Below, one piece after another: positions 38,497 to 61,389 of a DNA stretch of 64,000 bases. The DNA is taken from contig CAVPCR010000004.1 in assembly GCA_963702435.1 (NCBI GenBank), positions 370,829 through 434,828 on the forward strand, read 5' to 3'. Under the pieces are notes generated by a model. That model was not told where the DNA came from and searched no databases. It saw only the letters and a program-made list of their open reading frames with translations. Within the stretch, counting starts at the first letter, position 1. Each line of letters opens with the position of its first letter. A program made the position numbers and the translations under genes. The stretch comes from Candidatus Eiseniibacteriota bacterium (GTDB lineage: Bacteria > Eisenbacteria > RBG-16-71-46 > CAVPCR01).

Positions 38497-38692
38497 GCGG
38501 CCGGGATCCTCCCGTAGCCAGCGAGACGCCCGGCGCTATGTGCCGCCGCCGGCCTGGATCACCGAGCCCGCGAACGAGGAGGCGTCTCGCTGAGACCGCC
38601 TGGATGTCGTTGATCTATCTCTCCACGGCCGACTGGTCCGCATACGTGCCGACCGCGCGGGTTGCGGGCCCTGGCTCCCGTTGCGATCCACG

Positions 38693-42315: not shown

Positions 42316-42530
42316 CCGCTCAGGCCCAAGGTGCGCTATCGGACCCCGTGTCGCGAGTGAAAATCGCGTAACCTCCTGGAGAGGCGCCCTGCGGTGAGAA
42401 ACCGCCGTCGCTCATGCCAGTGGTCTATCCCGGCTGAGGCGCCAGGTTGCTGTGACACGCGGCTGCCGCGGAGCCCGGTGCGGGAGCGGGGCGAACGGAG
42501 CGCGAGGTTCTGAGAGGGAGAGCGGAAAGG

Positions 42531-43385
42531 GTGATCGAGATCATGTCGCCGCGGGATGCGATCCAGTCCGAGTTCGCGCTCGGCGCGGCGGAGTCCGATC
42601 CGGGGCCGCCGCCGGCCTGGATCACCGAGCCCGCGAACGAGGAGGCGATCGCGAGCGCGCTCGCCGAGCTCGATCCTGAGCAGCAGGCGGCGGTCACGCA
42701 CGGCGAAGGGCCGCTCCTCATTGTCGCCGGCGCCGGCACCGGGAAGACGCGCGTCATTGCGCATCGCATCGCCTATCTCATCGCCGCCAGGAAGGCCGAG
42801 CCGTCCGAGATCCTCGCGCTCACCTTCACCGAGCGCGCCGCGGCGGAGATGGAGGCGCGGGTCGATCTCCTCGTCCCCTATGGCTACACGGACATGTGGA
42901 TCTCGACCTTCCATGCCTTCGGCGACCGTATCTACCGCGAGTACGCGCTCGAGATGGGGCTCTCCGATGCGGCGGTCGTCCTGAACGAGGCGGAGCGGCT
43001 CGTCTTCTTCCGCGAGCGGCTCTTCCGCCTCCCGCTCCGGCGCTTGCTGCCGCTCGGAAACCCGGTGCGCCACCTGGCGGCGCTCCTGCGCGTCGTCGCG
43101 CGGGCGAAGGACGAGGGGGTGACGCCCGAACGCTACGTCGAGCACGCGCGCATCGAGCTCGATGCAGCGGCGGCGGAGGCGGCGGCCGCCGCCGATGATC
43201 TCGACGCCGGCGCCCGCCTCGCCGCGGCGCGCCGACAGCTCGAGATCGCCGAGACCTACCGGGCCATGGACGAGGAGCTGCACGCGGCCGATCGCATCGA
43301 CTTCGGCGATCAGCTCCTCCTCACGCTCCGCCTCCTCCGCGAGCAGGAGCACGTCCTCGCCCAGGTGCGCCGCCGCTTCCGCTAA
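42531..43385 (+). pseudogene. UvrD/PcrA-like helicase, N-terminal 284 aa only
   Basis: Walker A LLIVAGAGTGKT and motif Ia ILALTFTERAA are present. The ORF stops right after ...VRRRFR, where helicases continue with the DExx box. Repeat copy C follows. Confidence 0.8.
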
Positions 43386-43436: not shown

Positions 43437-43675
43437 TGGATGCCGATCATCCTCGGCAGCGCGAGGGGAGAGGTGCGCCCAGCGGGGACCGGGGGTCGGT
43501 CCGCGGGACCGCCTCGCCGCGCGGCGGCCGTGGCCACCCCGCGCCAACACCACACGCTGACGCGCGGCCGCCGCTCACGCCACCGATTAGATGCGCCGCC
43601 GCCGCCGGTCACGCCGCTTCGCCCCCCGTTCCCCGCCTCCTCCCGGCGCCGCGACGAAAGGAAATTCCTATCCCT
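43437..43675 (+). repeat. Repeat unit copy C (about 240 bp, no adjacent transposase)
   Basis: It shares with copies A, B and B' the hairpin TGCCGA-TCATCC-TCGGCA, GAGGGGAGAGGTGCGCCCAGC, the hairpin GGACCG-GGGGT-CGGTCC, GCGGCGGCCG.GGCCACCCCGCG, and the terminus GACGAAAGGAAATTCCTATCCCT. Confidence 0.85.
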
Positions 43676-43686
43676 ATCCCTTCGAC

Positions 43687-44925
43687 TCACAGCACTCTCC
43701 ACCAGGGTACGGCCAGCACGTCGGGAGCCAGCCACTCGATCGTCCTTCCCGTGTGCAGCACGAGCCCAGCGCGCGCCTTCTTGCCGTACTCTGCACGGAA
43801 GGTTCGCACATGGGCCGCGTCGCCGAGCCGGGGCCGGCCTGTCGCCTTGACCTCGACAGGCAACAAGCGCCCGCCCGCCTCGATCACGAAGTCCACCTCC
43901 TCGCCGACGCTCGTTCGCCAGTAGAAGACATCGGCTCGCTCCAGGCGCGCGTCCCGCCACGCCAGAAGATCGTGAAGGACGATGTTCTCGAGATGGGGGC
44001 CGCCGGGCTCGGCGCCCCCCCCGAGATGCAGCGCCACTCCCGTGTCACCCCAGTAGAGCTTCGGAGACTTGATGAGCCGCTTGGTGCGATTCACCGCGTA
44101 CGCGGGCACCCGCACCAGCAGGTAAGAAGTCTCGAGGAGATTCAAGTAGCGGTGCACGGTCGGCTGGGGCAGCGCGACATCTCGGCCTAGTTCCGTCTGG
44201 TTGACGAGCTGGCCCAGCCGCTGGCCGGCCGCGCGCATGAGGCGGCGGAAGTCCGGCAGTGCCGCGACCGCGGAGAGATCCGGCAAGTCGCGCTCGAGGT
44301 AGGTGCGAACGTAGCCGTCGAACCACACCGCCCGCTGCCGGTCCGTCTTCAGGTGAACGGCCGGCGTCGGAAAGCCGCCGCGGCGCGCCAGGGCACGCCA
44401 GTCCTCCGGCTCGTCGGGCTCTGCCGACATGAGGTCGAGCCATTGCTCGTCACGGGCGGCAAGCAACTCGTCCCAGAGCCCGCAGCGGCCGAGCCCGCGC
44501 TGCTCCCGGCGCGTCATCGGCCACAGGGTGAGATAGCTCGCTCGACCGGCCAGCGACTCGGAAACCCGGCGCATCAGGAGTAGATTGGCCGACCCGGTGA
44601 GCAGAAAATGCCCCGGCCGCCGGCGGCGGTCGATCGCCCGCTTGACGGCGCGCAAGAGATCCGGCTCGCGTTGCACCTCGTCGAGCGTGACCGGCTGCGG
44701 ACCGCCGAGAAGCACCTCGGGATCGCGCCGTGCCGCATCGACCGTATCCAGATCGTCGAGGGAAAGGTAACGCCTCCCCGCCGGGGCGAGATCCTGCACC
44801 AAGGTGCTCTTCCCGGTCTGGCGGGCGCCGGTCACTACGACAGCGGGCATGGTGCTGAGGCATTCGTCGAGACTGCGGCCGACAAGCCGCGGAAGGGTGG
44901 CATCCATGCCGCGAATGATAATCAT
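43687..44925 (-). CDS. AAA-type ATPase with DUF4143 C-terminal domain
   Basis: Walker A VVTGARQTGKST and Walker B-like VTLDEVQ. The overall layout matches the widespread ATPase-DUF4143 family. The ORF is intact (412 aa). Confidence 0.85.
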   Translation of the reverse strand: MIIIRGMDATLPRLVGRSLDECLSTMPAVVVTGARQTGKSTLVQDLAPAGRRYLSLDDLDTVDAARRDPEVLLGGPQPVTLDEVQREPDLLRAVKRAIDRRRRPGHFLLTGSANLLLMRRVSESLAGRASYLTLWPMTRREQRGLGRCGLWDELLAARDEQWLDLMSAEPDEPEDWRALARRGGFPTPAVHLKTDRQRAVWFDGYVRTYLERDLPDLSAVAALPDFRRLMRAAGQRLGQLVNQTELGRDVALPQPTVHRYLNLLETSYLLVRVPAYAVNRTKRLIKSPKLYWGDTGVALHLGGGAEPGGPHLENIVLHDLLAWRDARLERADVFYWRTSVGEEVDFVIEAGGRLLPVEVKATGRPRLGDAAHVRTFRAEYGKKARAGLVLHTGRTIEWLAPDVLAVPWWRVL

Positions 44926-45084
44926 TCACGCTGTGAATAGACAAGGGCCAAGCGGGATCCCGGGCGGGCGGCGTCCGCGGCCGGCCCGCGGGAGCCACGG
45001 GCCGGGGGCTCGCTCCTTCTGTGTCGCCCAGCCATTCCTTCCGCACCGCGGCCTGGATCCCGGCGTGGGCGTCGGAGATGCACA

Positions 45085-45182
45085 AGGGATAGGAATCTCC
45101 TTTCGTCAATAGCCCGGGAGGAGGAGGAGAACGGGGAGCCAAGCCGCGCGCGCGACCGACCGGGAGGCGTCCGCGGCGTGGC
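45085..45182 (-). repeat. Repeat unit copy D (terminal about 98 bp, inverted relative to C)
   Basis: The reverse complement reads ...GCCACGCCGCGGACGCCTCCCGGTCGGTCGCGCGCGCGGCTTGGCTCCCCGTTCTCCTCCTCCTCCCGGGCTATTGACGAAAGGAGATTCCTATCCCTTG, nearly identical to the end of copies A and B'. Confidence 0.85.
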
Positions 45183-45185
45183 GGC

Positions 45186-46616: not shown

Positions 46617-47093
46617 ATGGACTTCGGTGAAGCCAAACGAATCCTGGCCGCCTTCGAGCGAGAGGGAGTCCGTTACGTGCTCGTGGGCTCGATGGCCATG
46701 GCCGCGCAGGGGCTCATCCGAGCCACGCGGGACATGGACTTGTTCGTGGCTGCCGACCCGGAGAACATCGCCCGTCTCCGCTGTGCGCTCAAGACGCTCT
46801 TCCCTGAGGATCCCAATGTGGACCTGATCACGGCAGAGGACCTCGGGGGAAGCTATCCCGCGATCGAGTACACACCACCTCATGGCCTCTACTCGCTCGA
46901 CATCCTGACCCGGCTTGGCGAGGCGTTCCGGTTCGAGGACTTGGAGGCGGAGGCGATCGTCGTGGAGGGCATCACGATCCGGGTTGCCACGCCGCGCACG
47001 CTTTACCGCATGAAGAGGGGGACGGCCCGGCCGCAGGACCGCATTGACGCCGCCGCTATCCGTGAACGATTCGATCTCCCGGAGGATGCCTGA
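46617..47093 (+). CDS. Nucleotidyltransferase-fold protein (MNT/DUF6036-like)
   Basis: ...VRYVLVGSMAMAAQGLIRATRDMDLFV... fits the G[SG]-x(9-13)-DxD minimal NTase motif. 158 aa, intact. Confidence 0.7.
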   Translation: MDFGEAKRILAAFEREGVRYVLVGSMAMAAQGLIRATRDMDLFVAADPENIARLRCALKTLFPEDPNVDLITAEDLGGSYPAIEYTPPHGLYSLDILTRLGEAFRFEDLEAEAIVVEGITIRVATPRTLYRMKRGTARPQDRIDAAAIRERFDLPEDA

Positions 47094-47404
47094 TGGGAGT
47101 GCGGCGATACCGATCCGTGGAGGACATGCCCGCGGGCTCTCCCCGCCGCCCGCTGGATCCCGAGAACCTGGTGATTGCTTTCGGGCTCATGGATCTCGCG
47201 CACCGCATCGCCGCATTGTCATTCCCGCCCGGCATCAAGAAGTACCGCTCCCATGACGAAATGCTGCGCGCGCGCGAACGGTGGGCGGCGGCCGGGACCC
47301 ACGGGTCACGCGACGGAGACGATTGCGGACTTCAAGGCCGCGGGGATCCGCACCTACATCCCCGAACCCAAAACCCCCGGGGGCCGTCGCCGCTGGAAGG
47401 GTAA
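47093..47404 (+). CDS. Small partner ORF of the NTase (C-terminus probably altered)
   Basis: The ATG overlaps the NTase stop (TGATG). RRYRSVEDMP...PPGIKKYRSHDEMLRARERW resembles small proteins I recall next to such NTases. The last about 35 aa run into a transposase remnant. Confidence 0.45.
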   Translation: MGVRRYRSVEDMPAGSPRRPLDPENLVIAFGLMDLAHRIAALSFPPGIKKYRSHDEMLRARERWAAAGTHGSRDGDDCGLQGRGDPHLHPRTQNPRGPSPLEG

Positions 47405-47604: not shown

Positions 47605-48048
47605 TTGCCGCGACCCATGACGCCTATCTTCGCCGCCCTCTTCGCGTTCCTCGGCGCCAGCCTTCGTTCCCGGGCCTCGATGCAGCTTGAGATCCTCGCG
47701 CTCCGGCATCAGTTGGCCGTCTGCCAGCGATCTCTGAAGCGACCGCGTCTCCGGCCCGCCGACCGCCTCCTCTGGCCCTGGCTCGCCCGCCTCTGGCCGC
47801 GCTGGCGAGAAGCCCTCATGATCGTTCAGCCGAGAACCGTCATCACCTGGCAACGGCGCCGCTTCCGCGAGCACTGGACCCGTCTCTGCCGCTCGGGGAA
47901 ACCTGGACGGCCGTTGGTAGCGAAAGAAGTGCGTGTTCTCATCCGGCGGCTGTCGGCCGCCAATCCACTCTGGGGAGCACCGAGGATTGTCGGCGAGCTC
48001 GCCAAGATCGGAATCGCCGTGACCAAGGCCACGGTCGAGAAGTACACG
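47605..48048 (+). pseudogene. N-terminal 148 aa of an rve-type integrase/transposase (HTH part only)
   Basis: ...LEILALRHQLAVCQRSLKRPRLRPADRLLW...IVQPRTVITWQRRRFREHW...LIRRLSAANPLWGAPRIVGELAKIGIAVTKATVEKYT is the usual N-terminus of this transposase class. The DDE core is absent. Confidence 0.65.
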
Positions 48049-49193
48049 CTCGCCAACTGGCATCCCCACCTGCACGTGCTCGCCACCGACGGCGCCTTTC
48101 GGCCCGACGGCACGTTCGTGCCGCTCGGTGTTCACTCGCTCGCGGTGCTGACCGAGGCGTTCCGCCGCGCCGTGCTCCGCGCCTTCGTCCAGCGCGGCCT
48201 GTTCAGCGCCGAGGTGGCCGCCTCCATGCGCGCCTGGCCCCACTCCGGCTTCCATGTCCACAACGCCGTGCGGCTCGATGGGGATGACCTCGGCGGCCTC
48301 TTGCCGCTCGCTCGCTACGCAGCCCGCGCCCCCCTCGCCCTCACCCGCATCACCTACGACGCTGCAAAGCCGCAGGTCCTGGTTGCCTCCGACAAGGCCG
48401 AAGGGCCCACCGCCGGGACGCATGCCTTCGCTCCTCTCGACTTCCTTGCCCAGCTCCTCACCCACATCCCGCGCCAGGGCGAACACCTCGTGCGCTACTA
48501 CGGCGCGTATGCGAGCCGCACCCGCGGCACCTGGCGCCGGCAAGGGATCGGCCCCTGGGTCGAGCGGCAGCGCGGCGAGGGGGACCAAGAGGACGAGCCA
48601 CCGGGTGCACCCCGCGATGCCAACGCTGATCCTGGCGGTGACCCGGTGGTGCCACCTCCGGAACCGCTATCCCCATCGCGGGCCGCGCTCAGGAAGCGCT
48701 GGGCGGAACTCCTCCGTCGCCTCTACGAGGTCGATCCGCTGAGTTGCCCGCGGTGCGGGGGCGAGATGCGGATCATCGCCTTCCTCCTCGATCCACCGGT
48801 GATCGACGCCATCCTCCGCCACCTCCGCCGCGCTGCCTACGACGCGCGGGCCGGCCCGTGGGCGGAGGTGGTTGGGAGCAATGCGGTGGCGGGGGACGCC
48901 GGCCCGGCGGGGTGCGGCTAGCCCGGCCGGCCGCGGCCAGCGCGCGGTTTGGGGTGCTGCCGATCACCATCGGCAGCGCAAGGGGAGAGGTGCGCCCAGC
49001 CGCGACCGGGCGTCGGTCGGCGGGGCCGCATCGCGGTGCGGCGGCCGCGGCCACCCCGCGGCAACGTCGGGCCACGACGCGCAGTCGCCGGTCACGCCAC
49101 GCCGCGGACGCCTCCCGGTCGGTCGCGCGCGCGGCTTGGCTCCCCCTTCTCCTCCTCCTCCCAGGCTATTGACGAAAGGAAATTCCTATCCCT
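47939..49193 (+). repeat. Direct repeat copy A (1,255 bp): integrase remnant, IS91 transposase fragment and 272-bp structured tail
   Basis: It matches 56211-57465 at a constant +8272 offset. I found 5 differing bases by eye (48161, 48229, 48586-48588). It ends ...GACGAAAGGAAATTCCTATCCCT followed by TG (CTTG). Confidence 0.9.
48049..48921 (+). pseudogene. IS91-family HUH/Y2 transposase, C-terminal about 290 aa, fused in frame to the integrase fragment
   Basis: HUH motif WHPHLHVLATDG, tyrosine motif HLVRYYGAYASRTRG and C-terminal CPRCGGEM zinc ribbon are present. The N-terminal zinc-binding region is missing. Confidence 0.75.
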
Positions 49194-49195
49194 TG

Positions 49196-49428
49196 ATCGG
49201 CTGTACGACGCTGAGGGCCAGAACGTCGGGTACTTTCGCGGTGATGTCGCGTATTCGCTTCAGGGAGATTACCTCGGCGAGCTATACGACGACGAGCGCA
49301 TCGGGAAGCGCACGACGCGCATGCAGAGCAGAGGAAGCGCGATGATGGGGCACGTCGGGATCGCCCTGATGAGGCAAGTCGGACGCGTCGGCCTGTCGGT
49401 TGCTGGGTGGTCAGACCCGGATTTCTAA
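49196..49428 (+). pseudogene. C-terminal part of a 4-fold-beta-flower-like protein
   Basis: ...LYDAEGQNVGYFRGDVAYSLQGDYLGELYDDERIG...WSDPDF has only about 2 of the expected 4 repeats. It begins directly at the end of repeat A without its own start. Confidence 0.35.
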
Positions 49429-49482
49429 CCTCGAGGCAGCTCTGACGCGGGAGTTGGGGTAATGGAGTTGCGGAGGGACGCT

Positions 49483-49517
49483 AAAAAGGGCCCCAGGTGA
49501 GTGCCTGGAGCCCTTTT
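49483..49517. terminator. Canonical bidirectional intrinsic terminator
   Basis: AAAAA-GGGCCCCAGG-TGAGTG-CCTGGAGCCC-TTTT lies between convergent ORFs. This A/T-flanked form is unusual in this window. Confidence 0.7.
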
Positions 49518-49534
49518 CGAGGCGTGTTCAGTGA

Positions 49535-50269
49535 CTAAGGACCGGATGGTTGACACGTGTCAATGCCGGGGACCTCTACGCCGATGGCTCCTCGCTGATC
49601 TTGTGGAATGGGCGTGGGCATGTTTCCACCGGCGGTTATAACATGGGTCCCGAGGGGGAACTCAGCCTCGGCGATGGTGAGCATCGTTCCTGGATTCCCA
49701 GCTCGGATGAGCAGGCGGCCGATAGGAGCAAGATCTCCACCACGCAGAGGGTTGAAAGCGACGGCATAGTTACCATTGCCAGTACAGGGCGTGACCACCT
49801 CGATGGCTCCTGATCGGCAGCTGCCGATCCATCCGTAGCAAGTCCAGCTTGGATCCCATGAGAGGCGCAGCTGGATGCCGGTCACGGCCTCGTAGTCAAT
49901 GAGGTAGACGTACACGATGACGAGCGCTGCGGAGTCGACCGTGGTGGTCGCGGTCTGCGTGGCGCAGTCGAGTCCCTGGAGCTGCGGCGTCTCACAAGTG
50001 GAGGCCGGATCGTAGGACACAGCGTGGAGGACGATGCGCGTATCTGCGTTGGGTGTGCTTGGTGGCGCCTCGACGGGGGTGGGGGTGACATCGGTGACTC
50101 CAGACGTGTCGATGACGACGCCTACGGAGTCATCTACCTGTAGATGGCCGTCGCCTGGCACCACCGCTGGGGGGTTGATGGCTTTGTTCCCGGGAGGGGC
50201 GCCGGGATCAAGACAGCTCAGTGCGGCCATGAGGCCCAGGAGCACTGAGACCAGAGTAAGGTTTTTCAT
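49535..50269 (-). CDS. Cys-rich lipoprotein of unknown function
   Basis: ATG at 50269 follows GGAG. Lipobox LMAALSC. 244 aa with 8 Cys after the lipobox Cys, 17 nt downstream of the protease pseudogene, in an AT-richer region. Confidence 0.55.
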   Translation of the reverse strand: MKNLTLVSVLLGLMAALSCLDPGAPPGNKAINPPAVVPGDGHLQVDDSVGVVIDTSGVTDVTPTPVEAPPSTPNADTRIVLHAVSYDPASTCETPQLQGLDCATQTATTTVDSAALVIVYVYLIDYEAVTGIQLRLSWDPSWTCYGWIGSCRSGAIEVVTPCTGNGNYAVAFNPLRGGDLAPIGRLLIRAGNPGTMLTIAEAEFPLGTHVITAGGNMPTPIPQDQRGAIGVEVPGIDTCQPSGP

Positions 50270-50285
50270 TTCGGTACTCCTTTGC

Positions 50286-51557
50286 TTACCTGAGGACAAT
50301 GGCCTTATGGGTGAGGTCTCGGCCGGCGGCGTGGATGCGGTAGAAGTAGACGCCGGAGGAGACCGGTTGCCCGCCATCAGTGCGGCCGTCCCAGGTGGCG
50401 GCGTGCTCGCCGGGGTCTTCGAAACGGTCGACGAGCCGGCGGATGAGGCGACCACTGGGCGTGAGGACATCGAGAGTTACGTGCCCGCGAGTCGGGAGCT
50501 GGTAGGTGATGCGGGCAGATCCGGGCGAGGGGTTCGGCGCTATCCCGCGAAGCGCAAACGGTGGGGCCATCGGCACGTGATCCCGGACGGCGTAGACGAG
50601 TCCGAGACAGTTCGTGCCCTTGGGGACGCCGATGTCGAGAAAGATGTTCCCTGGTTCGTTCGCAAAGGGGTACCCGAAGGTGTCCCATCCTTCGCAGAAC
50701 TCAGAGAATTCATAGATGAAGTGCCCGCCGATCATGTAGTTGACCGAGACATCGGCGATCTCAGTTATCCCGGTATAGAAGGTGGTGCTGTTGTCGTCAT
50801 CGTTATAGGCGTCGTGGTCGTTGGGAAGGTCGTAGATGTCCCAGAGGTGGGTGGCGACGGCACGCTCCGCCGATTCCCCGCGCGGGTAAGGGGTGTTTCC
50901 GCCCCATTCGAGGTCGTAGGTCTCGGGCAGCGTGTCGTTGAGGGCACCGTTGTAGACGTAATCTTCGAACAGGAAATCGTTGGTGGCCCCGCACGGGTAG
51001 AACCACGCCCAGCCTTCACTGTACGCGCAGTATGGGTCGGTGACAGCCCCCCAGTGATGGCTGTTGCAGGGGGTGGTCGGCGGTGGGAGGGCCGCAAGGG
51101 TGTTCAACACGTGATGGGCATATTCATGGCCGATGATGTCGAAGTCCCACTCATCGAATCGAATGTCGCTTGGTGGATTGCTGTAGCCATCGAGGTGGAT
51201 GATCGCATCTAGGCGTGTGTAGTAGGAGTATGTTTGTGGTAGCGTGCGGTCCCAAATGCACTGGACTGGCGGGGCAGTGTAACCGGTCGCCGTCTCGGTG
51301 AAGTGGGCGAGGTCGTAAAGGTCGTATGTGATGTTGAAAGCACCGCGCTCGGTGCCGGTATAGGTGAAGGCCCCATAGAGGCCTTCGAGATCGATGAAGT
51401 TGGCGTTGTTGACGTACCGGGCCGCAAGGGGAAGCCAGACGCCATATCCATAGAGGTAGTCGTCTTGATCGACAACGGTCCGGTAGTCGACCAGGTCGGT
51501 GGTCCATGTCGGGATGAAGAGCTGTGAGCGTGGGCGCGGTGTTTGATGGCATTTGAG
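50286..51557 (-). pseudogene. HEXXH zinc metalloprotease with CTD, 5'-truncated
   Basis: The frame is open from 51557 to 50286 and contains IIGHEYAHHV and a complete CTD (...ITYQLPTRGHVTLDVLTPSGRLIRRL...SGVYFYRIHAAG...AIVLR). There is no ATG, GTG or TTG upstream of 51110 and no signal peptide. It abuts the transposon end. Confidence 0.6.
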
Positions 51558-51579
51558 TCACGCATGTCGAGGGGAGTGT

Positions 51580-52419
51580 TTATCGCGCCTTGGCGCGGCC
51601 GCGGTCGGGGACCTTCGGCACGGTGAAGACCTCGAGGTAGAGCTTTTCGTCGAGCTGGCGTGCATCACGCTGAACGGCAGCATCGAGGAGCTCTCCGGCC
51701 ATGGTCATGAGGATGCGGTAGTTGCCGGCGGCGTGCTCGCAGAGCGTGGTCATGAGCTCGGTCGTCATCAAGTGCGGGTTTCCGGTCTGGTTGAGGGCGT
51801 GACGCAAGCATTCGAGCAGTTCCTGTGGAGTGGCGGGCTGGAGGACGAGGCGAACACGCATCCGGCTGCCGAGGGGAAGGAGCTCCTCGCCGCGGAAGTT
51901 CTCGGTCAGGCGAGAGTCACCGCCGAGGACGACGGTGAGGAGCGCGCGGGAGTCGAGCTCGGTGGCGCAGAGCAGGCGGAGCTCGTTGAGCACGGCGGGC
52001 CGCATCTCCTGTGCCTCGTCGACGATGAGCACGGGACGGAGGAGAGCGGCTTCGATGTGCGCTTGCCAGCGTTCGCGGAGCACCCGGGCTCCGGCCCAGC
52101 GGTTGTGGGGTGAGAGCTGAACGCCGAACAGGTCGCCGAGCTCGCGGTAGAAGTCGGGGACGCCGCTCTGGGGACGGGTGAGGATCCCGACCATGAGGTC
52201 ACGATGTCCGGAGAGCTTGTCGACGAGGAGCCGCAGCGCGACCGACTTGCCGAGTCCGGGATCGCCGGTGATCAGGGCGAAGCCTCCTTCGCGGGTCAGG
52301 TTCTCGACGCGCCACGAGAAGTGCTCGAGCTTGGGAGTGAGGAGGAGCGCCTCGATGGGGACCTCGGGCGAGAAGGGGTTCCACTTGAGGCCATGGAGCG
52401 AGAGGAGCTTCGGGTTCAT
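51580..52419 (-). CDS. TniB/ExeA-like AAA+ transposition ATPase
   Basis: Walker A ITGDPGLGKS and Walker B VLIVDEAQ. The ATG overlaps the transposase stop (ATGA at 52416-52419). Confidence 0.85.
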   Translation of the reverse strand: MNPKLLSLHGLKWNPFSPEVPIEALLLTPKLEHFSWRVENLTREGGFALITGDPGLGKSVALRLLVDKLSGHRDLMVGILTRPQSGVPDFYRELGDLFGVQLSPHNRWAGARVLRERWQAHIEAALLRPVLIVDEAQEMRPAVLNELRLLCATELDSRALLTVVLGGDSRLTENFRGEELLPLGSRMRVRLVLQPATPQELLECLRHALNQTGNPHLMTTELMTTLCEHAAGNYRILMTMAGELLDAAVQRDARQLDEKLYLEVFTVPKVPDRGRAKAR

Positions 52420-53936
52420 GGCTGGTCCTCCTGGAGAGTGGTCTGCGGGGGCGGCGCGTGGTGCGCGGCGAGTGGATACGGTGCGGGTTTCGGGAGATAG
52501 GCCGGCGGGAGGCCGGTGGCGGCGTAATCTTTCATCAGCTGGCGCATCAACGGCGCCATGCCGGACTCGGTCGGCGGATCCTGATCGCGGGTGGCGAGGG
52601 GATCTTCAGGCAGTCGACGCCTGAGGCCGTCAGCGTTACGTGCCTTGTCGAGGGGGTAAAGTTGACAGAGTACCGCTCCCGTGCGTTCGTCGACGAGGTG
52701 AACCTGAGAGAGGTCCCAGGTGGCGTAGCGCACGGCGACGCGTTCGAGGGTGCGGTAGTGCGCGGGGATCTCGAAGCGGCATCCCTCGAGCGTCAGGGTG
52801 CCGTCGCTACGGCGCTGAGTGCGCCGCACTTCGATCGTGAAGGCGAGGCGCAGCGGCTGGCTGTCGGGGCTCGATCGGCCGACGTCGGGTCCTTGGAGGT
52901 AGCGTTCGACGGGGGACTGGTGGATCTCGGAGTGCACGGTGCGGTTGTACTCCATCTCGGCCCAAGCCTGGGTGGCCTCGTTGAGAAGCGGCAGCGTCAG
53001 GTCGCGCACTCCTTCGAGCATGGCGATCAGCCGTCCTTCGAGCTGGGCCCAGAAGACTTCTTGTTTGGCGTTCTGGTAGGCGGAGTAGGGCAAGGTCAGG
53101 TGATGGAGGATGCCGAGCCGGGCCAGGCCCTGGGTCACCTCGCCAGCCTTCATGGCGGTGCCGTTGTCGCTCATCAACGACCTCGGCAACGAGCGCTTCT
53201 GAATCGCCTGCGAGAGACCATGCACGAGGTTCTCCGCGTTCTCAGCGTGGTACCATTGCGCGTGACAGACCAATCGTGAGCGATCATCGAGGATCGCCAG
53301 AACCTGCGGGATCACCCACTCGCCGTCGGGCGTGAGCACCTTCTTCGAGCCGGCGTGGAAGTCGAGATGCCAAAGCCCGTGGACGTACTCGGCCTCGAAG
53401 CTACGCACCTCGCGCTCATCGAGCCGTGCTTCGGCGCGTCGCACCCCGGTGGTGTCGGCGCTGGAGACCCGGCGCCGCTTCCACAGCCCGTTGGCCTTCA
53501 TGAACCGACGGACGGTCGAGTACGAGGGTAGCGGCCCGAGGGTCGGATCCGCACCCGCCAGCACTGCGAGGTTGTCGTAGTGCAGCGCGTAGCTCCAACC
53601 GCGGTGGGCCTTGTACAGTTCGTGAATCGCCTGCTTGAGCCCGTCCCCGATCGCGAGCGCCCGGCCGGAGTCCTTGCGGATCTTGCGCCGAAGCACCCTG
53701 ACTGGATCGAACCGCTCCCGCTTCGCCTGGTGATACCAACGTTCGATGGTCGACACCCCGAACTGCATCGGTCGAGCGGTCACGGGGTGGAGCCACTGCT
53801 TCTCGGCCAGCTTCCGGAGCTCGCCCTGAAGCTCGCCACGCGCCGGCGGCGCCGCCAGGAGCGGGCCGATCACCGAGAAGCGCAGATGCGCCCAGCGTTC
53901 GTGGACCGTGAGCTTACGGTTCTCGTCGTCTGCCAT
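52416..53936 (-). CDS. DDE (rve-type, Mu-like) transposase
   Basis: The catalytic blocks are WHLDFH, LMSDNGTAM and YQNAKQEVFW (D, D, 35-E spacing). The N-terminal HTH region is present. 506 aa, intact. Confidence 0.9.
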   Translation of the reverse strand: MADDENRKLTVHERWAHLRFSVIGPLLAAPPARGELQGELRKLAEKQWLHPVTARPMQFGVSTIERWYHQAKRERFDPVRVLRRKIRKDSGRALAIGDGLKQAIHELYKAHRGWSYALHYDNLAVLAGADPTLGPLPSYSTVRRFMKANGLWKRRRVSSADTTGVRRAEARLDEREVRSFEAEYVHGLWHLDFHAGSKKVLTPDGEWVIPQVLAILDDRSRLVCHAQWYHAENAENLVHGLSQAIQKRSLPRSLMSDNGTAMKAGEVTQGLARLGILHHLTLPYSAYQNAKQEVFWAQLEGRLIAMLEGVRDLTLPLLNEATQAWAEMEYNRTVHSEIHQSPVERYLQGPDVGRSSPDSQPLRLAFTIEVRRTQRRSDGTLTLEGCRFEIPAHYRTLERVAVRYATWDLSQVHLVDERTGAVLCQLYPLDKARNADGLRRRLPEDPLATRDQDPPTESGMAPLMRQLMKDYAATGLPPAYLPKPAPYPLAAHHAPPPQTTLQEDQP

Positions 53937-53993
53937 CGCGTTCGCCTCCCTTTCGGGCGGCCGAGCCTGGCCGCCGTGATGTGGGAGCGGACG

Positions 53994-54638
53994 CTAATCG
54001 CGGTCACCCTCGGCCCGCACCGCGCGTCTTCTGCGGGTGGCCCGCGGGGTCACCCGGCGCCGCACATAGCTTGCGCATTCCGGCGCCGACGCGGTGGTGA
54101 TCGGGGAGAGGAATCGCAGGAGGGCGATCAGCCGGGAACGGTCATCGCCAGGGAAGCGACCGAGGAGCACGCGGGGTAGATCCATCGCGAGCAGGCGTCC
54201 GGTGAACCGGCCGCGGGCCACGCTCCAGAACCGGCTACGCGCGAAGGTGGTGCGCCACCACCGGCGCCACCGGGCCAGGGTCCGGGAGCTCACCCCCAGC
54301 CATTGCCGAAGCTGCCGTTGAGCGCGCCCCCGCCCTCGCATCGCCGCCAGGACGACCACCGCCGCGGAGTAAACCCGCCGGCCCAAGAAGCGTACCGAAG
54401 GTGGCGTCAGCCGCCGCCGGCACCCCTCCACGGCGCAGCACAAGCTCAGTCGGAGGTCATACCGGACCGCCAACCGCTCTGGAAGACCCCGCGGCTTACG
54501 GGGGTAGTTCGCCTGGTCGACCCTCCCGCCGCACCACCCGCACCCCCCGCGGCGGGCCGCCCGGGCGAGATCCTGGTCGTACTGAAAAAGGACCTCGTAG
54601 AGCCGCTCGTCCCTGAGCAGATCCTGGTACAATCCCAT
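53994..54638 (-). CDS. Cys-rich (zinc-finger-like) accessory protein of the transposon
   Basis: GGCGWCGGRVDQANYPRKPRG...CCAVEGC... It is the first gene of the element. I recall similar ORFs next to such transposases, but their function is unknown. Confidence 0.5.
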   Translation of the reverse strand: MGLYQDLLRDERLYEVLFQYDQDLARAARRGGCGWCGGRVDQANYPRKPRGLPERLAVRYDLRLSLCCAVEGCRRRLTPPSVRFLGRRVYSAAVVVLAAMRGRGRAQRQLRQWLGVSSRTLARWRRWWRTTFARSRFWSVARGRFTGRLLAMDLPRVLLGRFPGDDRSRLIALLRFLSPITTASAPECASYVRRRVTPRATRRRRAVRAEGDRD

Positions 54639-54795
54639 CCTCCTTCGTCTTTGCTGGACTGAAGGAGGAAACCCCCTCGGGGCGCTTGAATCAAGCTCCT
54701 TGAGGGGGTTCTGCTTGCACTCCCTGATGGCGCCTCGGACGATTCCATCAGTGATCGTGATCCGAAACGCCGTCCCCGACCATCAACTTTCTTGC

Positions 54796-56046
54796 TTACG
54801 CTGACTGATCGACTGATACGTTGTACATGCCCCAACTGCCAGAGCCGTCCGTCTCGGTCGCCTGGTCAAATCGGAAGTAGAATGTGCCGCCGGGGACGGT
54901 AAACTGGTACTGTCCGTTGGGGTGAGTGTAGTAAAGTTCAGTAAGAAGATACTTCATCGCCCTATTGGTCTGTGGCCCTGTCACGTTGTCGTAGTCCTGG
55001 TAGAGATACCTTCCCAAGATGTCGAAGTCGCGGACGACGCGCACGGGATAAGGATCCACGGTGAAGCCGGTTTTGCGGGCGCGGATCTCGCCGGTCATCG
55101 CGGCGGTGCCGGCAGTGAAGCGGGCTTTGTGATCGGGAAGCTCGGTGATGGTGCCTAAAGATGCCGGGACGAGCCACCACTCCTCCATGTCGAGGATCGT
55201 ACCCGGAGGATACTCGTACCAGAAGAGCATGCAGTATCCGCTTGTGACTTGAAAGTATGGGAAGTTAACGGAACGGACAGGACCGGCTGTGCAATCACCC
55301 TGGTAGCGGGGACTCAGGGATCCGTGGTCACGGGCAGGGGGCTGGGAATGCGGGGGATCGATGCAACAAGGGTCAGGGCGCTTGTTGACCTGGGGTGCGA
55401 CGTCTGGTTCGGGGGGAACAGAGACGGTGGGTGGTGGGGGAGTGGTGACGGGGTGGCTTGTGCTATCGCTTCGAGGTGCACCCTCTGGGTATGCCTGGAG
55501 GATGTCGTAGGCAAATGGCGGCGTGGGGGAGGAGGGATCAGGGGCGCGTGGACGGTAACCGTGGATGCAAACAGGAAGGGATGCCGCTGCCAGAGGGGTA
55601 TCGGGAGATGCAGGCCCGTCGGCCGTGCAGGACCACGGACGGATGGGGTTGATGCACTGTGCGCGGATGGTGTCGCTTCCGCAAGTGGTGGCAACGAAAC
55701 GCACAGAGAGTTGGAGGGGCGTATGTGGCTTGAATGAACCACGCCAGTGCTTGCCCTTCCGCGTCAAGAGGACACCGCCCTCACGCGTCCAGACGGTGCG
55801 CGACGTGGTGTCTTGGGGCGCAGCGATAGCTATGCCCGGACAACCGAGTGATGCCAGGGCAAGATCCATTGGCGCATCAGCGGTAAAGCTCGCAGTTACC
55901 GAGACCGTGTCCCCGACGCTAATCTCGGTCTTGGAAGCAGTGAGTTGAACGCGAACGTTCGGAGCAGGCTCTTGGGGCGCTGCGGAGGTCGAGGAGATTG
56001 CCAAAACAAATGCAGCGCAAGCAAGGGCCGGGTTGAGATGCTTCAT
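54796..56046 (-). CDS. Secreted Pro/Cys-rich protein of unknown function
   Basis: ATG at 56046 follows AGGAGG. Signal peptide MKHLNPALACAAFVLAISSTSAA. 416 aa with a Pro-rich linker, in an AT-richer region. Confidence 0.6.
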   Translation of the reverse strand: MKHLNPALACAAFVLAISSTSAAPQEPAPNVRVQLTASKTEISVGDTVSVTASFTADAPMDLALASLGCPGIAIAAPQDTTSRTVWTREGGVLLTRKGKHWRGSFKPHTPLQLSVRFVATTCGSDTIRAQCINPIRPWSCTADGPASPDTPLAAASLPVCIHGYRPRAPDPSSPTPPFAYDILQAYPEGAPRSDSTSHPVTTPPPPTVSVPPEPDVAPQVNKRPDPCCIDPPHSQPPARDHGSLSPRYQGDCTAGPVRSVNFPYFQVTSGYCMLFWYEYPPGTILDMEEWWLVPASLGTITELPDHKARFTAGTAAMTGEIRARKTGFTVDPYPVRVVRDFDILGRYLYQDYDNVTGPQTNRAMKYLLTELYYTHPNGQYQFTVPGGTFYFRFDQATETDGSGSWGMYNVSVDQSA

Positions 56047-56210
56047 ATCGGCCTCCTGCCTGCCGGGATGGGTCCCTGAATGATACTCCTGCGAAGAGCG
56101 GGGCAAGAAGAAATTGTGTATCCGCTAAGACGCTGCAACAACGACGGTTGCAATAGGCAGTGAAACGAGCGGACCACGAGAGAAGAGACCGAAGGGACCG
56201 ACCGATCATT

Positions 56211-57465
56211 TCATCCGGCGGCTGTCGGCCGCCAATCCACTCTGGGGAGCACCGAGGATTGTCGGCGAGCTCGCCAAGATCGGAATCGCCGTGACCAAGG
56301 CCACGGTCGAGAAGTACACGCTCGCCAACTGGCATCCCCACCTGCACGTGCTCGCCACCGACGGCGCCTTTCGGCCCGACGGCACGTTCGTGCCGCTCGG
56401 TGTTCACTCGCTCGCGGTGCTGACCGAGGCTTTCCGCCGCGCCGTGCTCCGCGCCTTCGTCCAGCGCGGCCTGTTCAGCGCCGAGGTGGCCGCCTCCATG
56501 CTCGCCTGGCCCCACTCCGGCTTCCATGTCCACAACGCCGTGCGGCTCGATGGGGATGACCTCGGCGGCCTCTTGCCGCTCGCTCGCTACGCAGCCCGCG
56601 CCCCCCTCGCCCTCACCCGCATCACCTACGACGCTGCAAAGCCGCAGGTCCTGGTTGCCTCCGACAAGGCCGAAGGGCCCACCGCCGGGACGCATGCCTT
56701 CGCTCCTCTCGACTTCCTTGCCCAGCTCCTCACCCACATCCCGCGCCAGGGCGAACACCTCGTGCGCTACTACGGCGCGTATGCGAGCCGCACCCGCGGC
56801 ACCTGGCGCCGGCAAGGGATCGGCCCCTGGGTCGAGCGGCAGCGCGGCGAGGGGGACGCGGAGGACGAGCCACCGGGTGCACCCCGCGATGCCAACGCTG
56901 ATCCTGGCGGTGACCCGGTGGTGCCACCTCCGGAACCGCTATCCCCATCGCGGGCCGCGCTCAGGAAGCGCTGGGCGGAACTCCTCCGTCGCCTCTACGA
57001 GGTCGATCCGCTGAGTTGCCCGCGGTGCGGGGGCGAGATGCGGATCATCGCCTTCCTCCTCGATCCACCGGTGATCGACGCCATCCTCCGCCACCTCCGC
57101 CGCGCTGCCTACGACGCGCGGGCCGGCCCGTGGGCGGAGGTGGTTGGGAGCAATGCGGTGGCGGGGGACGCCGGCCCGGCGGGGTGCGGCTAGCCCGGCC
57201 GGCCGCGGCCAGCGCGCGGTTTGGGGTGCTGCCGATCACCATCGGCAGCGCAAGGGGAGAGGTGCGCCCAGCCGCGACCGGGCGTCGGTCGGCGGGGCCG
57301 CATCGCGGTGCGGCGGCCGCGGCCACCCCGCGGCAACGTCGGGCCACGACGCGCAGTCGCCGGTCACGCCACGCCGCGGACGCCTCCCGGTCGGTCGCGC
57401 GCGCGGCTTGGCTCCCCCTTCTCCTCCTCCTCCCAGGCTATTGACGAAAGGAAATTCCTATCCCT
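56211..57465 (+). repeat. Direct repeat copy B (1,255 bp)
   Basis: See copy A. It starts inside the integrase remnant (TCATCCGGCGGCTGTCGG...) and ends ...TTCCTATCCCT. Confidence 0.9.
56291..57193 (+). pseudogene. IS91-family transposase C-terminal fragment, copy B
   Basis: 300-aa ORF identical to copy A apart from substitutions such as MRAWPH/MLAWPH and GDQED/GDAED. It begins within the residual integrase codons (MTKATVEKYT/LANWHPHLHV). Confidence 0.75.
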
Positions 57466-57896
57466 GAGATGCGGATCATCGCCTTCCTCCTCGATCCACC
57501 GGTGATCGACGCCATCCTCCGCCACCTCCGCCGCGCTGCCTACGACGCGCGGGCCGGCCCGTGGGCGGAGGTGGTTGGGAGCAATGCGGTGGCGGGGGAC
57601 GCCGGCCCGGCGGGGTGCGGCTAGCCCGGCCGGCCGCGGCCAGCGCGCGGTTGGGGGTGCTGCCGATGATGATCGGTTGCGCGAGGGGAGAGGCGCGCCC
57701 TGCGGGGATCGGGTGTCGCTCGGCGGGGCCGCTTCGCGGTGCGGCGGCCGCGGCCACCCCGCGGCAACGTCGGGCCACGACGCGCAGTCGCCGGTCACGC
57801 CACGCCGCGGTCGCCTCCCGGTCGGTCGCGCGCACCACCTCGCTCCCCGTTCTCCTCCTCCTCCCGGGCTATTGACGAAAGGAAATTCCTATCCCT
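57466..57896 (+). repeat. Partial tandem copy B' (last about 150 bp of the transposase gene plus tail), diverged
   Basis: It restarts at GAGATGCGGATCATCGCC (equivalent to 48763 in copy A) and runs to a second ...GACGAAAGGAAATTCCTATCCCT. About 90% identical to B by eye. Confidence 0.85.
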
Positions 57897-57910
57897 TATC
57901 CCTTATCCCT
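57890..57910 (+). repeat. TATCCCT x 3 microrepeat at the repeat terminus
   Basis: Read directly. Copy C has TATCCC x 2 at the equivalent point (43670-43681). Confidence 0.85.
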
Positions 57911-58625
57911 GCGGCCAGAAGGGGCTCGTCGTGATGCCCCAGGTCCTCGCGAACACCTCGGGGAGGACGAGCATCGCCATGTCGCAGCGCACCCCGTCGC
58001 ACTGGTGGGCGATACGGGACAGCTCGCCGAGCATCGCCTCCTGCAAGGCGGGGTTGCCGTAGTTCAACTGGAAGGTGTCGGGCCAGCCGTCAAAGTAAGG
58101 GTCGCGGCCGTACGCGAGGATCCGGTTCCCGGCGCGCGCCCAGTTCTGGGGCTCGGCCGCGAGCTTCGCCTCGGTCCCGGCCACGAAGTACTCGGCGTGC
58201 TCCGCCACCCACCGGTGGTCCGGCGCCATGTGGTTGGGGACGAAATCGAGGATCAGGCGGAGATCGCGGCGCCGGAGCCTCTCGCGCAGGCGGGCGAGAG
58301 CCTGATCACCGCCGAAGTCCTCGTGGACTCGGTAGTCGCGCACCGCGAAGCACGAGCCCGTGACGTCGGCCTCTGAGAAATCGGGCAGCACCCGCCGATA
58401 CTCGGCGAGCCACTCGGGCTTCGACCGGGAGACGCGCCGCGCGGCGTCCCCCGTCTGCCAAACGCCGAGGAACCAGACGAGGTCGAAGCCGTTCTCGGCC
58501 AGTTGGTCGAGCTCCTCATCCGTCACATCGTCGAGCGTCGCCGGGCGGCGGAGCTCCCGCGAGAGCTCCGCCAGCCTGACGCGCGTGTTGATCTGGAAGA
58601 GCGACGGGTACCGTGGTGAGGACAT
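57903..58625 (-). pseudogene. GH13 alpha-amylase-family glycosidase, 3'-truncated
   Basis: ...FDLVWFLGVWQTG...LILDFVPNH...GVRCDMAM... are GH13 regions I, II and III. The ORF runs into the TATCCCT repeats (…PFWPQG-stop) well before the expected end. Confidence 0.7.
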
Positions 58626-58646: not shown

Positions 58647-61389
58647 CTAGCCCCCGCCCACTTGCTGGCGGACCAGATCGGTCAGCACCTTCCCCTTCGA
58701 CTCCCGGAGCACGGTCTCGGCGTCAAGGCGTCCGAACATGTCGAGGAGGCGGGCGACGACGCCCGTCCAGCCCGTCTGGTGGCTTGCGCCGAGGCCGGCG
58801 CCGTTGTCGCCGTGGAAGTACTCGTAGAAGAGGATCAGGTCCCGCCAGTGCGGGTCGGTCTGGAACTTCTCCGTTCCTCCGTACAGGGGACGGCGGCCGT
58901 TCTCGTCACGGAGGAAGATCGACGCGAGGCGCCGCGAGATCTCCTTGGCAACCGCGAAGAGCGTCATCCGCTTCCCGGACCCCGTCGGGCACTCGACCGT
59001 GAAGTCATCGCCGTAGAAGGCATAGAGGTTGAGGAGCGCGCGGACTATCAGAGCGTTCACGGGCATCCAGATCGGGCCCCGCCAGTTCGAGTTGCCCCCG
59101 AACATCCCGGTGTCCGACTCCGCCGGCACGTACGTCACGTCGTAGCGCTGCCCCGCCACGTCGAAGACGAACGGATGGTCCTTGTGGTGCCGCGACAACG
59201 ACCGGATGCCGTACGGGCTCAGGAACTCGCGCTCGTCGAGCATGTATCCGAGGACGCGCTCGAGCTTCTTGCGGTTCAGGACGGAGAGGAGACGGCGGTT
59301 CGCGTATCCGATGAACCCCTCCTCCGTCGGGGCCACGTGCGCGAGGACCTCGGGGTGCCGCTGCCGGAAGAGCGCGATCAGATCACGGAGCTTCGGGTAA
59401 CGTTCGAGAAGATCCCCCTCGAAGACCGTGGACGAGCAGAGGGGCAGGAGCCCCACCAGCGAGCGGATCTTGAGCCGCATCGCGCCGCCGTCCGGTAGCC
59501 GCAAGAGGTCGTAGAAGAAGCCGTCCTCTTCGTCCTACATCTCGTCCTTGTGCTTGCCGGGACGGTCCATGGCGTACGAGATCCAGATGAAGTGCTGGAG
59601 GAAGCGGTAGGCGTGCTCCTCGTACACCGGGTCCTCCTCGGCGAGGACAAGGGCGGTCTCGAGCATGTTCTGGCAGTAGAAGGCCATCCAGGCGGTCCCG
59701 TCCGCCTGCTCGAGGGACCCTCCCGTGGGGAGCGGCGCACTCCGATCGAAGATGCCGATGTTGTCGAGGCCGAGGAACCCGCCCGCGAAGACGTTCCGCC
59801 CGTCGGGATCCTTCCGGTTCAACCACCAGTTGAAGTTCATCAGCAACCCCTGGAAGGCGCGCTCGAGAAAGATGACATCGGCGCGCCCGAGGTTCTGCTC
59901 GATCTGGTAGAGGAAGAGCGTCGCCCAGGCGTGAACCGGAGGGTTCACGTCGCTGAAGTTCCACTCGTAGGCGGGGATCTGCCCGTTCGGGTGAGCGTAG
60001 AGGCTCTGGAGCATCAGGAGGAGCTGTTCCTTGGCGAAGTCGAAGTCGACGAGCGCGAGCGACACGGTGTGGAATGCGAGATCCCATGCCGCGTACCACG
60101 GGTACTCCCACTTGTCGGGCATCGAGATCACGTCGCCGTTGAACATGTGGAACCACTCGGAGTTCCGGACTGAGCCCGGCCGGCTCCCGAGGAGCGGGTG
60201 CGCGTCGTGCTCGCCGAGCCACCGATCGACATCATAGAGATAGAACTGCTTCGACCAGAGCATCCCGGCGAGCGCCTGGCGGTGGACCCGCCGCTCGTCC
60301 TCGGTCAGCGTGCGAGGAGTGATCTTCTCGTAGAACTCGTCGGCGTCGGCGATCCGCGCCTCGACCGTCTCGTCGAAGCCCTTCCCGAAGTGGACCGCGG
60401 GGAGCACCGCTGCGAGGCGGAGCCGGACGACCTGGCACCCGCCCGCCGGCACGTCGAGCACGTACCGGGCTGCGGCCTTGGTGCCGGTCCGCGCGGGATT
60501 CACCGCAGCCGTCTCCCCGCCGACGACATAGCGGTGGAACGCGTCCTTCACGAACGGGGACGGATTGGGCTGTCCCCATAGGCGCTCGTTGTTCGTCTCG
60601 TTCTCAGTGAAGAGGAACTCCGGCTCGCCGTCACAGGCCAGCGTGTACGCGCCCAGCTCGGGATGCTCGACGCGGATCTTGACCGGCCCATCGGCCGCAA
60701 GCCGCGGCCGTTGCGCACCGGCGTCCCACGACCACGTGTTGCGGAACCAGAGCGTCGGGAGGAGGTGCAGGCGCGCCGGCTCGGGGCCGCGGTTGTGAAC
60801 GGTGACGCGGATCAGGAGATCCTCCGGACCCTCCTTGGCGTACTCGAGGATGACGTCGAAGTAGCGATCCTCGTGGAACGCCCCGGTGTCGATCAGCTCG
60901 TACTCCATCTCCTGGCGCGAGCGACCGCGGTTGGTCTCGACCAGGTCCCGGTAGGGGAACTCCCGCTGCGGGTACTTGTAGATGGACTTCATGTAGGAGT
61001 GCGTCTGGGGTCGAGTCGACGTAGAAGTAGTACTCCTTGACGTCCTCGCCGTGATTCGCCTCGCTGTTCGTCAGGCCGAAGAACCGCTCCTTGAGAATCG
61101 GGTCCTTCTCGTTCCAGAGAGCGAGGGCGAAGCAGAGGCGCTGCTTGTCGTCCGCGATCCCGCCGATGCCGTCCTCGCCCCACCGGTAGGCGCGCGAGCG
61201 CGACTGGTCGTGGGTGAAGTAGTCCCAGGCGTTGCCGTCCGCGCTGTAGTCCTCGCGGACGGTCCCCCACTGCCTCTCCGAGAGGTACGGCCCCCACTTC
61301 TTCCAGGGGATCCCCTCCTCGCGGGCGTCATTCAGTCGCTTCTGTTCGATGCACTCGGTCAAACCTGCAGGTCGCGGAGAGCGGTTCAT
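58647..61389 (-). pseudogene. GH63/MGH1-like glucosidase with one frameshift and one in-frame stop
   Basis: Three colinear ORF pieces. There is a +1 shift near 61005 (…[22 protein letters not shown]…). An in-frame TAG at 59535-59537 (…KHKDEM*DEEDGFFYDLL…) sits where I expect Trp (TGG). Confidence 0.75.

Follow-up and report, generated by a model that had tools for sequence, protein, structure and literature searches.

Ori-anchored partial copies of an IS91-family element around a putative transposon-split protease gene in an environmental bacterial contig

Two nearly identical direct repeats of 1,255 bp, here named A and B, lie about 7 kb apart in contig CAVPCR010000004.1 of a Candidatus Eiseniibacteriota bacterium (assembly GCA_963702435.1). 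The stretch analysed, called the window, comprises 64,000 nucleotides (positions 370,829 to 434,828 of the contig), and all coordinates below are positions within it. Each repeat holds the 3' part of an IS91-family insertion sequence (IS) fused to a piece of an unrelated transposase gene. How was such a truncated element duplicated, and what is the DNA that now stands between the two copies? A preliminary description of the sequence had offered a composite or a one-ended rolling-circle transposon carrying a five-item cargo. The explanation favoured here, with about even confidence, is that one-ended rolling-circle transposition of the IS91 type, with the transposase supplied in trans, produced copy B from an A-type template.

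Limits of the repeats and the chimeric junction

The repeats were checked by repeat search, self-BLAST and base-by-base comparison. All three agreed on 47939-49193 for A and 56211-57465 for B, with 1,255 bp in each, five mismatches and 99.6% identity, and the limits and differences previously read by eye were thereby confirmed. The mismatches are at 48159 (G in A, T in B), 48230 (G in A, T in B) and 48586-48588 (CAA in A, GCG in B; A coordinates throughout), the last accounting for three of the five and exchanging exactly one whole codon (Q to A). Identity breaks off abruptly, exactly at both limits, and a chance origin of this identity is excluded.

Repeat A (plus strand) consists of 106 bp of an rve-type transposase remnant, the 3' part of an IS91 tnpA gene (48045-48921) and a 272-bp tail terminating in the ori-type terminus GACGAAAGGAAATTCCTATCCCT. 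Repeat B (plus strand) starts abruptly in an intergenic part of the DNA between the repeats and likewise ends at an ori-type terminus. The rve-type gene (IS3/IS481-like) is preserved as a 5' part of about 147 codons at 47605-48044 on the plus strand, with weak HTH_32/HTH_21 and IS3-family matches to its translation, and only its last 106 bp fall inside the repeat. The part upstream of this, from 47605, is present in copy A only. Copy B starts at codon 112 of the remnant, 106 bp before the fusion point, which bears out the earlier remark that it begins at an arbitrary position.

At 48044|48045 the N-terminus of the rve-type transposase is joined in frame to the 5'-truncated IS91-family transposase gene in both repeats, and the translations share the fusion peptide ...KATVEKYT|LANWHPHLHV. 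The junction was fixed at this position because native IS91 contigs from metagenome runs X4, X33 and X2 leave the window sequence exactly at 48045/56317; to the left of it they read ...GVISSIQTHG, and so does an IS91 fragment elsewhere in the window (copy F, below). In copy A the fusion forms an uninterrupted open reading frame (ORF) of 438 amino acids (aa; 47605-48921, plus strand), and in copy B there is no start codon for its rve part. The IS91 part corresponds to the 3' 1,149 bp of an IS91-family insertion sequence and encodes the Y2_Tnp domain (PF04986; E 3.6e-17 in A and 9.8e-18 in B), with the HUH motif HPHLH, the tyrosine-pair motif RYYGAY and a C-terminal CPRCGG zinc ribbon.

Copy A stands in the ancestral context, in which the rve gene runs upstream to its start. 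Because the rve gene continues upstream only in A, and because derived bases within the last 100 bp unite A and B against the other ori-bearing copies in the window (C, D and E, below), either B itself or its template was copied from an A-type element after the fusion. The suggestion that duplication followed fusion, made from the shared junction, therefore stands.

Family assignment, ends and loss of autonomy

Full-length relatives of the IS91 part were collected from 80 loci, nearly all of them in metagenome-assembled genomes (MAGs) of Gemmatimonadota, at no more than 59% amino-acid identity. They are elements of about 1.78 kb with a transposase of about 460 aa carrying Zn_Tnp_IS91 and Y2_Tnp. 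Against the NCBIfam model NF033538 (cut-off 125 bits) a full-length relative passed with 182.7 bits, and the window copies scored 61.5 bits over profile positions 149-314 of 356 only. The right end of the relatives reads ...GAT(T/C)GAAATTCCTATCCC, and the 1.78-kb elements end exactly there; the core TTCCTAT was located 197-290 bp after the tnpA stop in 19 of the 27 relatives checked. Their left end differs, (T/C)AACGC..GCTTCTGTTGCGAGCGG, and terminal inverted repeats are absent. These differing ends are the ori/ter asymmetry of the IS91 family.

Both window repeats end exactly at the conserved oriIS-type terminus (...GAAATTCCTATCCCT; ...GGAAATTCCTATCCCT), and their right limit thus coincides with the family terminus GAAATTCCTATCC. 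They keep only this end. The terIS is absent, and A and B are devoid of the zinc-binding N-terminal domain (PF14319) and of about 195 N-terminal codons; they are remnants of an IS91-family member and not functional members. Because both copies lack the zinc-binding domain and terIS, the transposase must act in trans. A right end at a conserved ori-type terminus and a left end at an arbitrary point in 5'-flanking DNA agree with the geometry previously ascribed to an IS91-type element without terIS.

Native, non-chimeric IS91 copies in runs X4, X33 and X2 show 1-4 differences per 92-226 aligned bases relative to the IS91 part of A and B, and are a possible source of the transposase, though not assignable to this genome. 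At 48159 and 48230 the T alleles of B are those of the native copies; both CAA and GCG occur among them at the exchanged codon.

The IS91 ends were also inspected for other signals. No target duplications were seen at the IS91 copies, and the ori-proximal 120-146 nt did not fold significantly more stably than shuffled sequence (z +0.64 and -1.79). With respect to a target tetranucleotide of the CTTG/GTTC type, TATCC|CTTG is a possible reading of copies A and D, but all window copies share CT after TATCC, and the flanks of the relatives vary. A GTTC at 47935-47938, just left of repeat A, was considered as a termination signal and dropped, because it is outside the copied segment and the relatives have no conserved flank. 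Membership among the insertion sequences with common regions (ISCR) was ruled out: against the ISCR clade Ia model NF052416 (cut-off 925 bits) the window copy scored 48.8 bits, far under the cut-off, and the relative at locus L010 scored 138.8.

A composite transposon consists of two IS copies, at least one of them with an active transposase, whose outer ends act together. This part of the preliminary description had to be abandoned: both copies are 5'-truncated by about 195 codons and are devoid of terIS, the fusion ORF of B has no start, a complete transposase is encoded by neither, and IS91 ends are not interchangeable and are not mobilized as a pair.

Other IS91 pieces in the window

Four further IS91 pieces were located. 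Copy C (57466-57897, plus strand) comprises the last 432 bp of a different IS91 copy, is 94.7% identical and lies directly behind the ori end of B; its own ori end adjoins a truncated alpha-amylase gene (57903-58625, minus strand). Copy D (45083-45183, minus strand) is an inverted ori-anchored stub of 101 bp with 97% identity, and copy E (43441-43675, plus strand) is an ori-anchored stub of 235 bp with 77% identity. Copy F (41989-42319, minus strand) is an internal tnpA fragment, 91% identical over 236 bp, that runs natively upstream of the fusion point of A and B and carries a degenerate HUH motif (HPRLL).

The ori end is retained by A, B, C, D and E, that is, by all pieces except F, and the cuts on the tnpA side are at 101, 235, 432, 1,149 and 1,255 bp from it. 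The ori ends adjoin truncated host genes (beta-flower, alpha-amylase and helicase fragments), the other halves of which are not found across the element. The region is an IS91 graveyard.

The arrangement of B and C has a counterpart outside the window. At locus L057:258-2271 (Gemmatimonadota MAG contig JANMLN010000040.1) an IS91 copy extends to its ori, and directly behind it stand the last 310 bp of a second, diverged copy that has an ori end as well. The layout is that of B and C, and the pattern of an ori end followed by a 3' stub therefore recurs in another MAG. Tandem duplications of 13-36 bp of the ori end are present at loci L004, L011 and L052, and short ones also at the ends of C and E.

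Origin of copy B

Copy B fits a product of one-ended IS91 transposition because it combines a constant ori end with a free end bearing the 106 bp of rve DNA that flank the IS91 part in A. In the mechanism favoured here, TnpA from an intact IS91 copy would act in trans and nick the ori end of the A-type template; the strand would be displaced leftwards through the truncated element and, terIS being absent, displacement would stop at an arbitrary point 106 bp past the fusion. The resulting 1,255-nt unit would then insert about 7 kb downstream, in or beside the resident IS91 remnant C. From this arrangement we infer in which direction copying ran, where the transposase came from and how B came to adjoin C. 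A Tn6049-like transposon entered a protease gene between the repeats later (see below).

The known behaviour of the IS91 family agrees with this geometry. Transposition begins at oriIS, proceeds through the element and often misses terIS, with one-ended events at 1-14% in the family and at about 50% in the absence of Orf121; a mini-IS with 82 bp of oriIS was mobile when TnpA was provided in trans, and a single-stranded circle of the bottom strand serves as the functional intermediate (PMC13181058). Adjacent DNA of up to 40 kb was co-mobilized by IS91 (PMC13181058; PMC5737581), and IS91-bounded duplications have been reported together with an 11-kb IS91 circle (PMC5737581).

Several observations weigh against this account. 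An intact IS91 tnpA was not found within the 64-kb window. The ori end of B touches the truncated start of C, and a simple insertion would need a coincidence or a linked deletion of the 5' part of C. The flanks of the relatives contain no conserved target tetranucleotide, and the GTTC beside A may be due to chance. The exchange of a whole codon between A and B, with both alleles present in native copies, suggests later gene conversion and not point mutation, by which the direction of copying would be blurred. Finally, in the read-level data, which were short Logan contigs of about 3-5x depth (no run contained the window at a high share, the best being X1 with 0.39 of the cargo and 0.10 of the flank), the outer repeat junctions were spanned by no contig.

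Other explanations were weighed against the same evidence. The DNA between the repeats and copy B together (49194-57465, 8,272 bp) could be a mobile unit, formed by read-through from the ori of B to an arbitrary point in the beta-flower gene and then either inserted beside A or recombined with A by homology from a circle. For ISCR1 complex class 1 integrons the recombination of a circle by homology has been proposed as the origin, and direct repeats would result from it. The limits of such a unit are suggestive, the left edge being a gene fragment whose cut coincides exactly with an ori end and the right edge an ori-bearing IS91 remnant, and the non-transposon DNA within it is compositionally foreign; IS91 circles and co-mobilization of up to 40 kb are documented (PMC13181058; PMC5737581). 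More steps would be needed, however: a 1,255-bp copy would first have to land beside the cargo in a donor, a second one-ended event would have to follow, and insertion or recombination would come last. In addition, the cargo was found nowhere else in the metagenome and protein searches. We regard this origin as unlikely, while granting it a real share of the probability. A somewhat smaller share is assigned to duplication without transposition, in which ordinary segmental duplication or recombination among the many IS91 pieces would have produced two longer copies of the chimeric element, the left part of B having later been lost by deletion or by arrival of the cargo, and the IS end would be a mere limit of homology between IS91 copies. 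Such an origin would suit the mosaic character of the region, in which truncated genes and IS91 pieces are intermingled and many rearrangements are evident, as well as the allele pattern, which suggests gene conversion between IS91 copies, and tandem duplications between IS91 copies have been described elsewhere (PMC5737581). It does not readily explain why the right limit is an exact IS terminus in both copies, yet with unrelated DNA beyond, or why the same end is kept in five of six IS91 pieces, which would hardly be expected from random breakpoints.

An assembly artefact, in which a single chimeric copy exists and the cargo was wrongly threaded between two renderings of a multi-copy metagenomic IS91 repeat, is judged improbable. 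The window apparently derives from a metagenome-assembled genome, its nearest relatives are Gemmatimonadota MAGs, IS91 copies are numerous in such communities, public runs cover the window at no more than about 3-5x, and the lack of contigs across any outer junction noted above would be expected under this explanation also. Contig depth was 3.76 in the repeat and 2.6-3.5 in unique parts, which at this level is uninformative on copy number. As an exact 32-mer the chimeric junction had no match in metagenome contigs. Against an artefact, the five differences between A and B match real alleles in other copies, each of the four outer junctions is specific and differs from the rest, and B carries the rve-IS91 fusion and so cannot be merely one more native copy of IS91; in run X1 the chimeric junction was present, together with unique pieces of the cargo and of the rve gene at 100% identity.

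With one-ended transposition in trans retained as the favoured origin of B, two possible later routes may be envisaged for the whole structure: cargo and B could be carried off by read-through from the ori of B, or homologous recombination of A with B could release the 8,272-bp unit as a loop. A far bolder proposal is that the 438-aa fusion of copy A, with its rve helix-turn-helix (HTH) N-terminus, complete Y2/HUH domain and C-terminal IS91 zinc ribbon, is a working domain-swapped transposase that itself made the ori-anchored copy B, and that the ori-to-ori 8.3-kb unit of cargo and B is live and moves a foreign secreted protease among Gemmatimonadota; we consider this very doubtful.

Composition and genes of the DNA between the repeats

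GC and tetranucleotide composition were computed for the segment 49194-56210, which had been described as lower in G+C. For the segment as a whole GC was 0.636, against 0.693 upstream and 0.659 downstream. The description holds for the non-transposon parts, with GC of 0.610 at 49194-51524 and 0.600 at 54805-56210, and fails for the nested transposon, which at a GC of 0.671 and a tetranucleotide correlation of 0.938 is not atypical. The tetranucleotide correlation of 49194-51524 was 0.804, below the minimum (0.832) of 300 size-matched window chunks of 2.3 kb; that of the 1.4-kb part 54805-56210 was lower still at 0.623, the control chunks being matched in size to 49194-51524. Only 3.7 kb of non-transposon DNA is compositionally foreign.

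At the left edge, the 3' fragment of a beta-flower-like gene (49195-49428, plus strand, 77 codons) is truncated at its 5' end, where the ori end of copy A cuts into it. The fragment had been named from the sequence, and its Pfam match (Bflower, E 8.8e-4, below the Pfam threshold) is weak. It is followed by an A5/T4-flanked hairpin with a 10-bp stem at 49488-49513 between convergent genes, which looks like a bidirectional terminator. A simple terminator scan missed it and folding confirmed it (-30.7 kcal/mol, z -3.3); it was the sole hairpin of its form in a crude scan of the whole window, as had been claimed. On the minus strand, 49535-50281 encodes a putative lipoprotein or secreted protein of 248 aa (MKNLTLVSVLLGLMAALSC...; GC3 0.68) with no family match. 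A hairpin resembling a terminator, with a tail rich in T, was observed at the extreme right of the cargo (56187-56203, minus strand), and looks like the end of a vanished upstream gene that was replaced by copy B.

A Tn6049-like transposon in a putative protease gene

The nested transposon occupies 51525-54804 (minus strand, 3,280 bp), and its TniA/TniB-like character was confirmed from Pfam and NCBIfam domains, gene order and inverted repeats. It contains a small Cys-rich/HTH gene without a family match (53994-54638), a TniA-like DDE transposase with rve and Mu-transpos_C domains (52416-53936) and a GspA/TniB-like AAA ATPase with an AAA_22 domain (51580-52419), all on the minus strand. The ends are imperfect 12-bp inverted repeats, TGAGCGTGGGCG and TCAGCGTAAGCA, which align with the published repeats of Tn6049, and CTG is present on both flanks. 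Target duplications of 4 or 5 bp were rejected, as only CTG/CTG matches and only removal of 3,280 or 3,283 bp restores the frame. The transposase is 54% identical in amino acids to that of an element on plasmid pMOL28 of Cupriavidus metallidurans, which has the same gene order; the genome paper of that species gives this element, of 3.5 kb and in 12 copies, the name Tn6049.

A hot-spring metagenome contains a relative of the nested element (depth about 160, about 3-5% of bases different), the homology of which breaks at 51525 and 54806, within two bases of the ends. Near-identical pieces of the element (0-5% different) were observed in freshwater-sediment, sediment, soil, cave and hot-spring metagenomes (runs X1-X4), and the Tn6049-like element appears to be widespread and active.

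A truncated metalloprotease with a C-terminal domain (CTD) and a Pro/Cys-rich secreted protein had been listed as separate genes on the two sides of the transposon, and are better read as halves of one. The C-terminal half (50286-51524, minus strand) is an open frame with an HExxH motif (HEYAH) and an FlgD_ig/T9SS-type C-terminal domain, and stays open for 447 nt with no start codon. The N-terminal half (54805-56046, minus strand), identified by a joined-frame test, encodes a signal peptide and a Pro/Cys-rich region, and its apparent stop at 54796-54798 is inside the transposon end. When the transposon was removed (3,280 or 3,283 bp), 56046 to 54805 (or 54808) and 51524 to 50286 formed one uninterrupted ORF of 825-826 aa, in the order signal peptide, Pro/Cys-rich region, HEYAH and FlgD_ig/T9SS-type C-terminal domain. 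Because removal of the transposon restores a single ORF, the halves are taken as one predicted 825-aa secreted HExxH protease gene split by the Tn6049-like transposon, a reading that rests on the restored frame.

Homologues were sought in other genomes, as the preliminary description had proposed, without a match: exact-protein look-ups of window genes returned no record, the joined protease gave no hit in a metagenome scan, and protease residues 270-720 had no homologue among 5.8 billion proteins. The coherent five-item cargo is dissolved, as two of its items are one gene, split by an independently mobile transposon, and the beta-flower item is a fragment. Apart from the transposon, the DNA between the repeats is not a designed cargo and comprises the beta-flower fragment, the lipoprotein gene and one protease gene.

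Neighbouring features

Just upstream of the rve remnant, an intact small nucleotidyltransferase gene with a 103-aa partner gene is located at 46617-47404. Among the debris of defence genes nearby are a fragment of UvrD (42456-43385) and an intact gene for an AAA_14/DUF4143 ATPase (43687-44925). Two identical direct repeats of 43 bp (38542-38584 and 42605-42647) enclose about 4 kb with a large lipoprotein gene and IS91 fragment F.

On the other side, two adjacent ORFs at 58647-60992 (minus strand) match the N- and C-terminal parts of the MGH1-like glycoside hydrolase domain in the same frame, parted only by an in-frame TAG at 59535-59537 (...KHKDEM*DEEDG...), which is either the mark of a nonsense pseudogene or a base error. 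Further away, self-BLAST revealed a tandem array of repeats of about 252 bp at 11022-15256 (offsets 252, 504, 756 and onwards; 69-83% identity); the encoded protein presumably contains about 17 units of 84 aa.

Comparison with known systems

The locus is a clear natural example of what the IS91 family leaves behind, namely ori-anchored partial copies, a part of a neighbouring gene carried along, and stacked ori ends; the recurrence of an ori end followed by a 3' stub in an unrelated MAG suggests a habit specific to the family. The annotation is improved by merging two supposed genes into one putative transposon-split orphan protease gene of 825 aa, and a widespread Tn6049-like transposon was identified outside Proteobacteria. 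The current understanding of transposition is unchanged: this is ordinary mobile-element wreckage of known kinds and not a new type of transposon.

With IS91, IS801 and IS1294 the window copies share a Y2/HUH transposase with HUH and YxxxY motifs, the absence of inverted repeats, a conserved ori-type end 197-290 bp behind tnpA terminating in TTCCTATCC, and copies in which a constant ori end is combined with a variable end that includes donor-flanking DNA. They differ from that family in that they are 5'-truncated, are fused to part of an unrelated rve-type gene and cannot be autonomous; a conserved target of the GTTC/CTTG type was not apparent in the Gemmatimonadota clade, and the nearest database relatives have at most 59% amino-acid identity.

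The resemblance to ISCR elements and complex class 1 integrons lies in an IS91-like element without terIS, in the direct duplication of 5'-side DNA that brackets captured genes, and in a proposed origin from a rolling-circle unit followed by homologous recombination. The same processes are invoked for gene capture by ISCR in clinical bacteria, whereas here they concern an environmental lineage, there are no resistance genes, the transposase gene is truncated, and the duplicated segment includes the IS remnant and not only flanking DNA.

The nested element shares with Tn6049 of C. metallidurans CH34 the order of small ORF, TniA-like DDE transposase and GspA-like AAA ATPase, at 3.3 kb here compared with 3.5 kb, and terminal inverted repeats alignable with TGTGCaTaAGCA. 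In contrast to Tn6049, its flanking direct repeat is of 3 bp (CTG), where 4 bp were published and the pMOL28 copy has 5 bp (TATGG), its host is Gemmatimonadota-like, and its first gene has no family match.

The sdpA region of Sphingobium herbicidovorans MH offers a further parallel: accessory genes are flanked by direct IS91 terminal repeats, duplications are explained by IS91 repeats, and an ori-to-ori circle is possible (PMC5737581). There the IS91 copies are intact and an 11-kb circle was observed (PMC5737581), whereas here both copies are defective.

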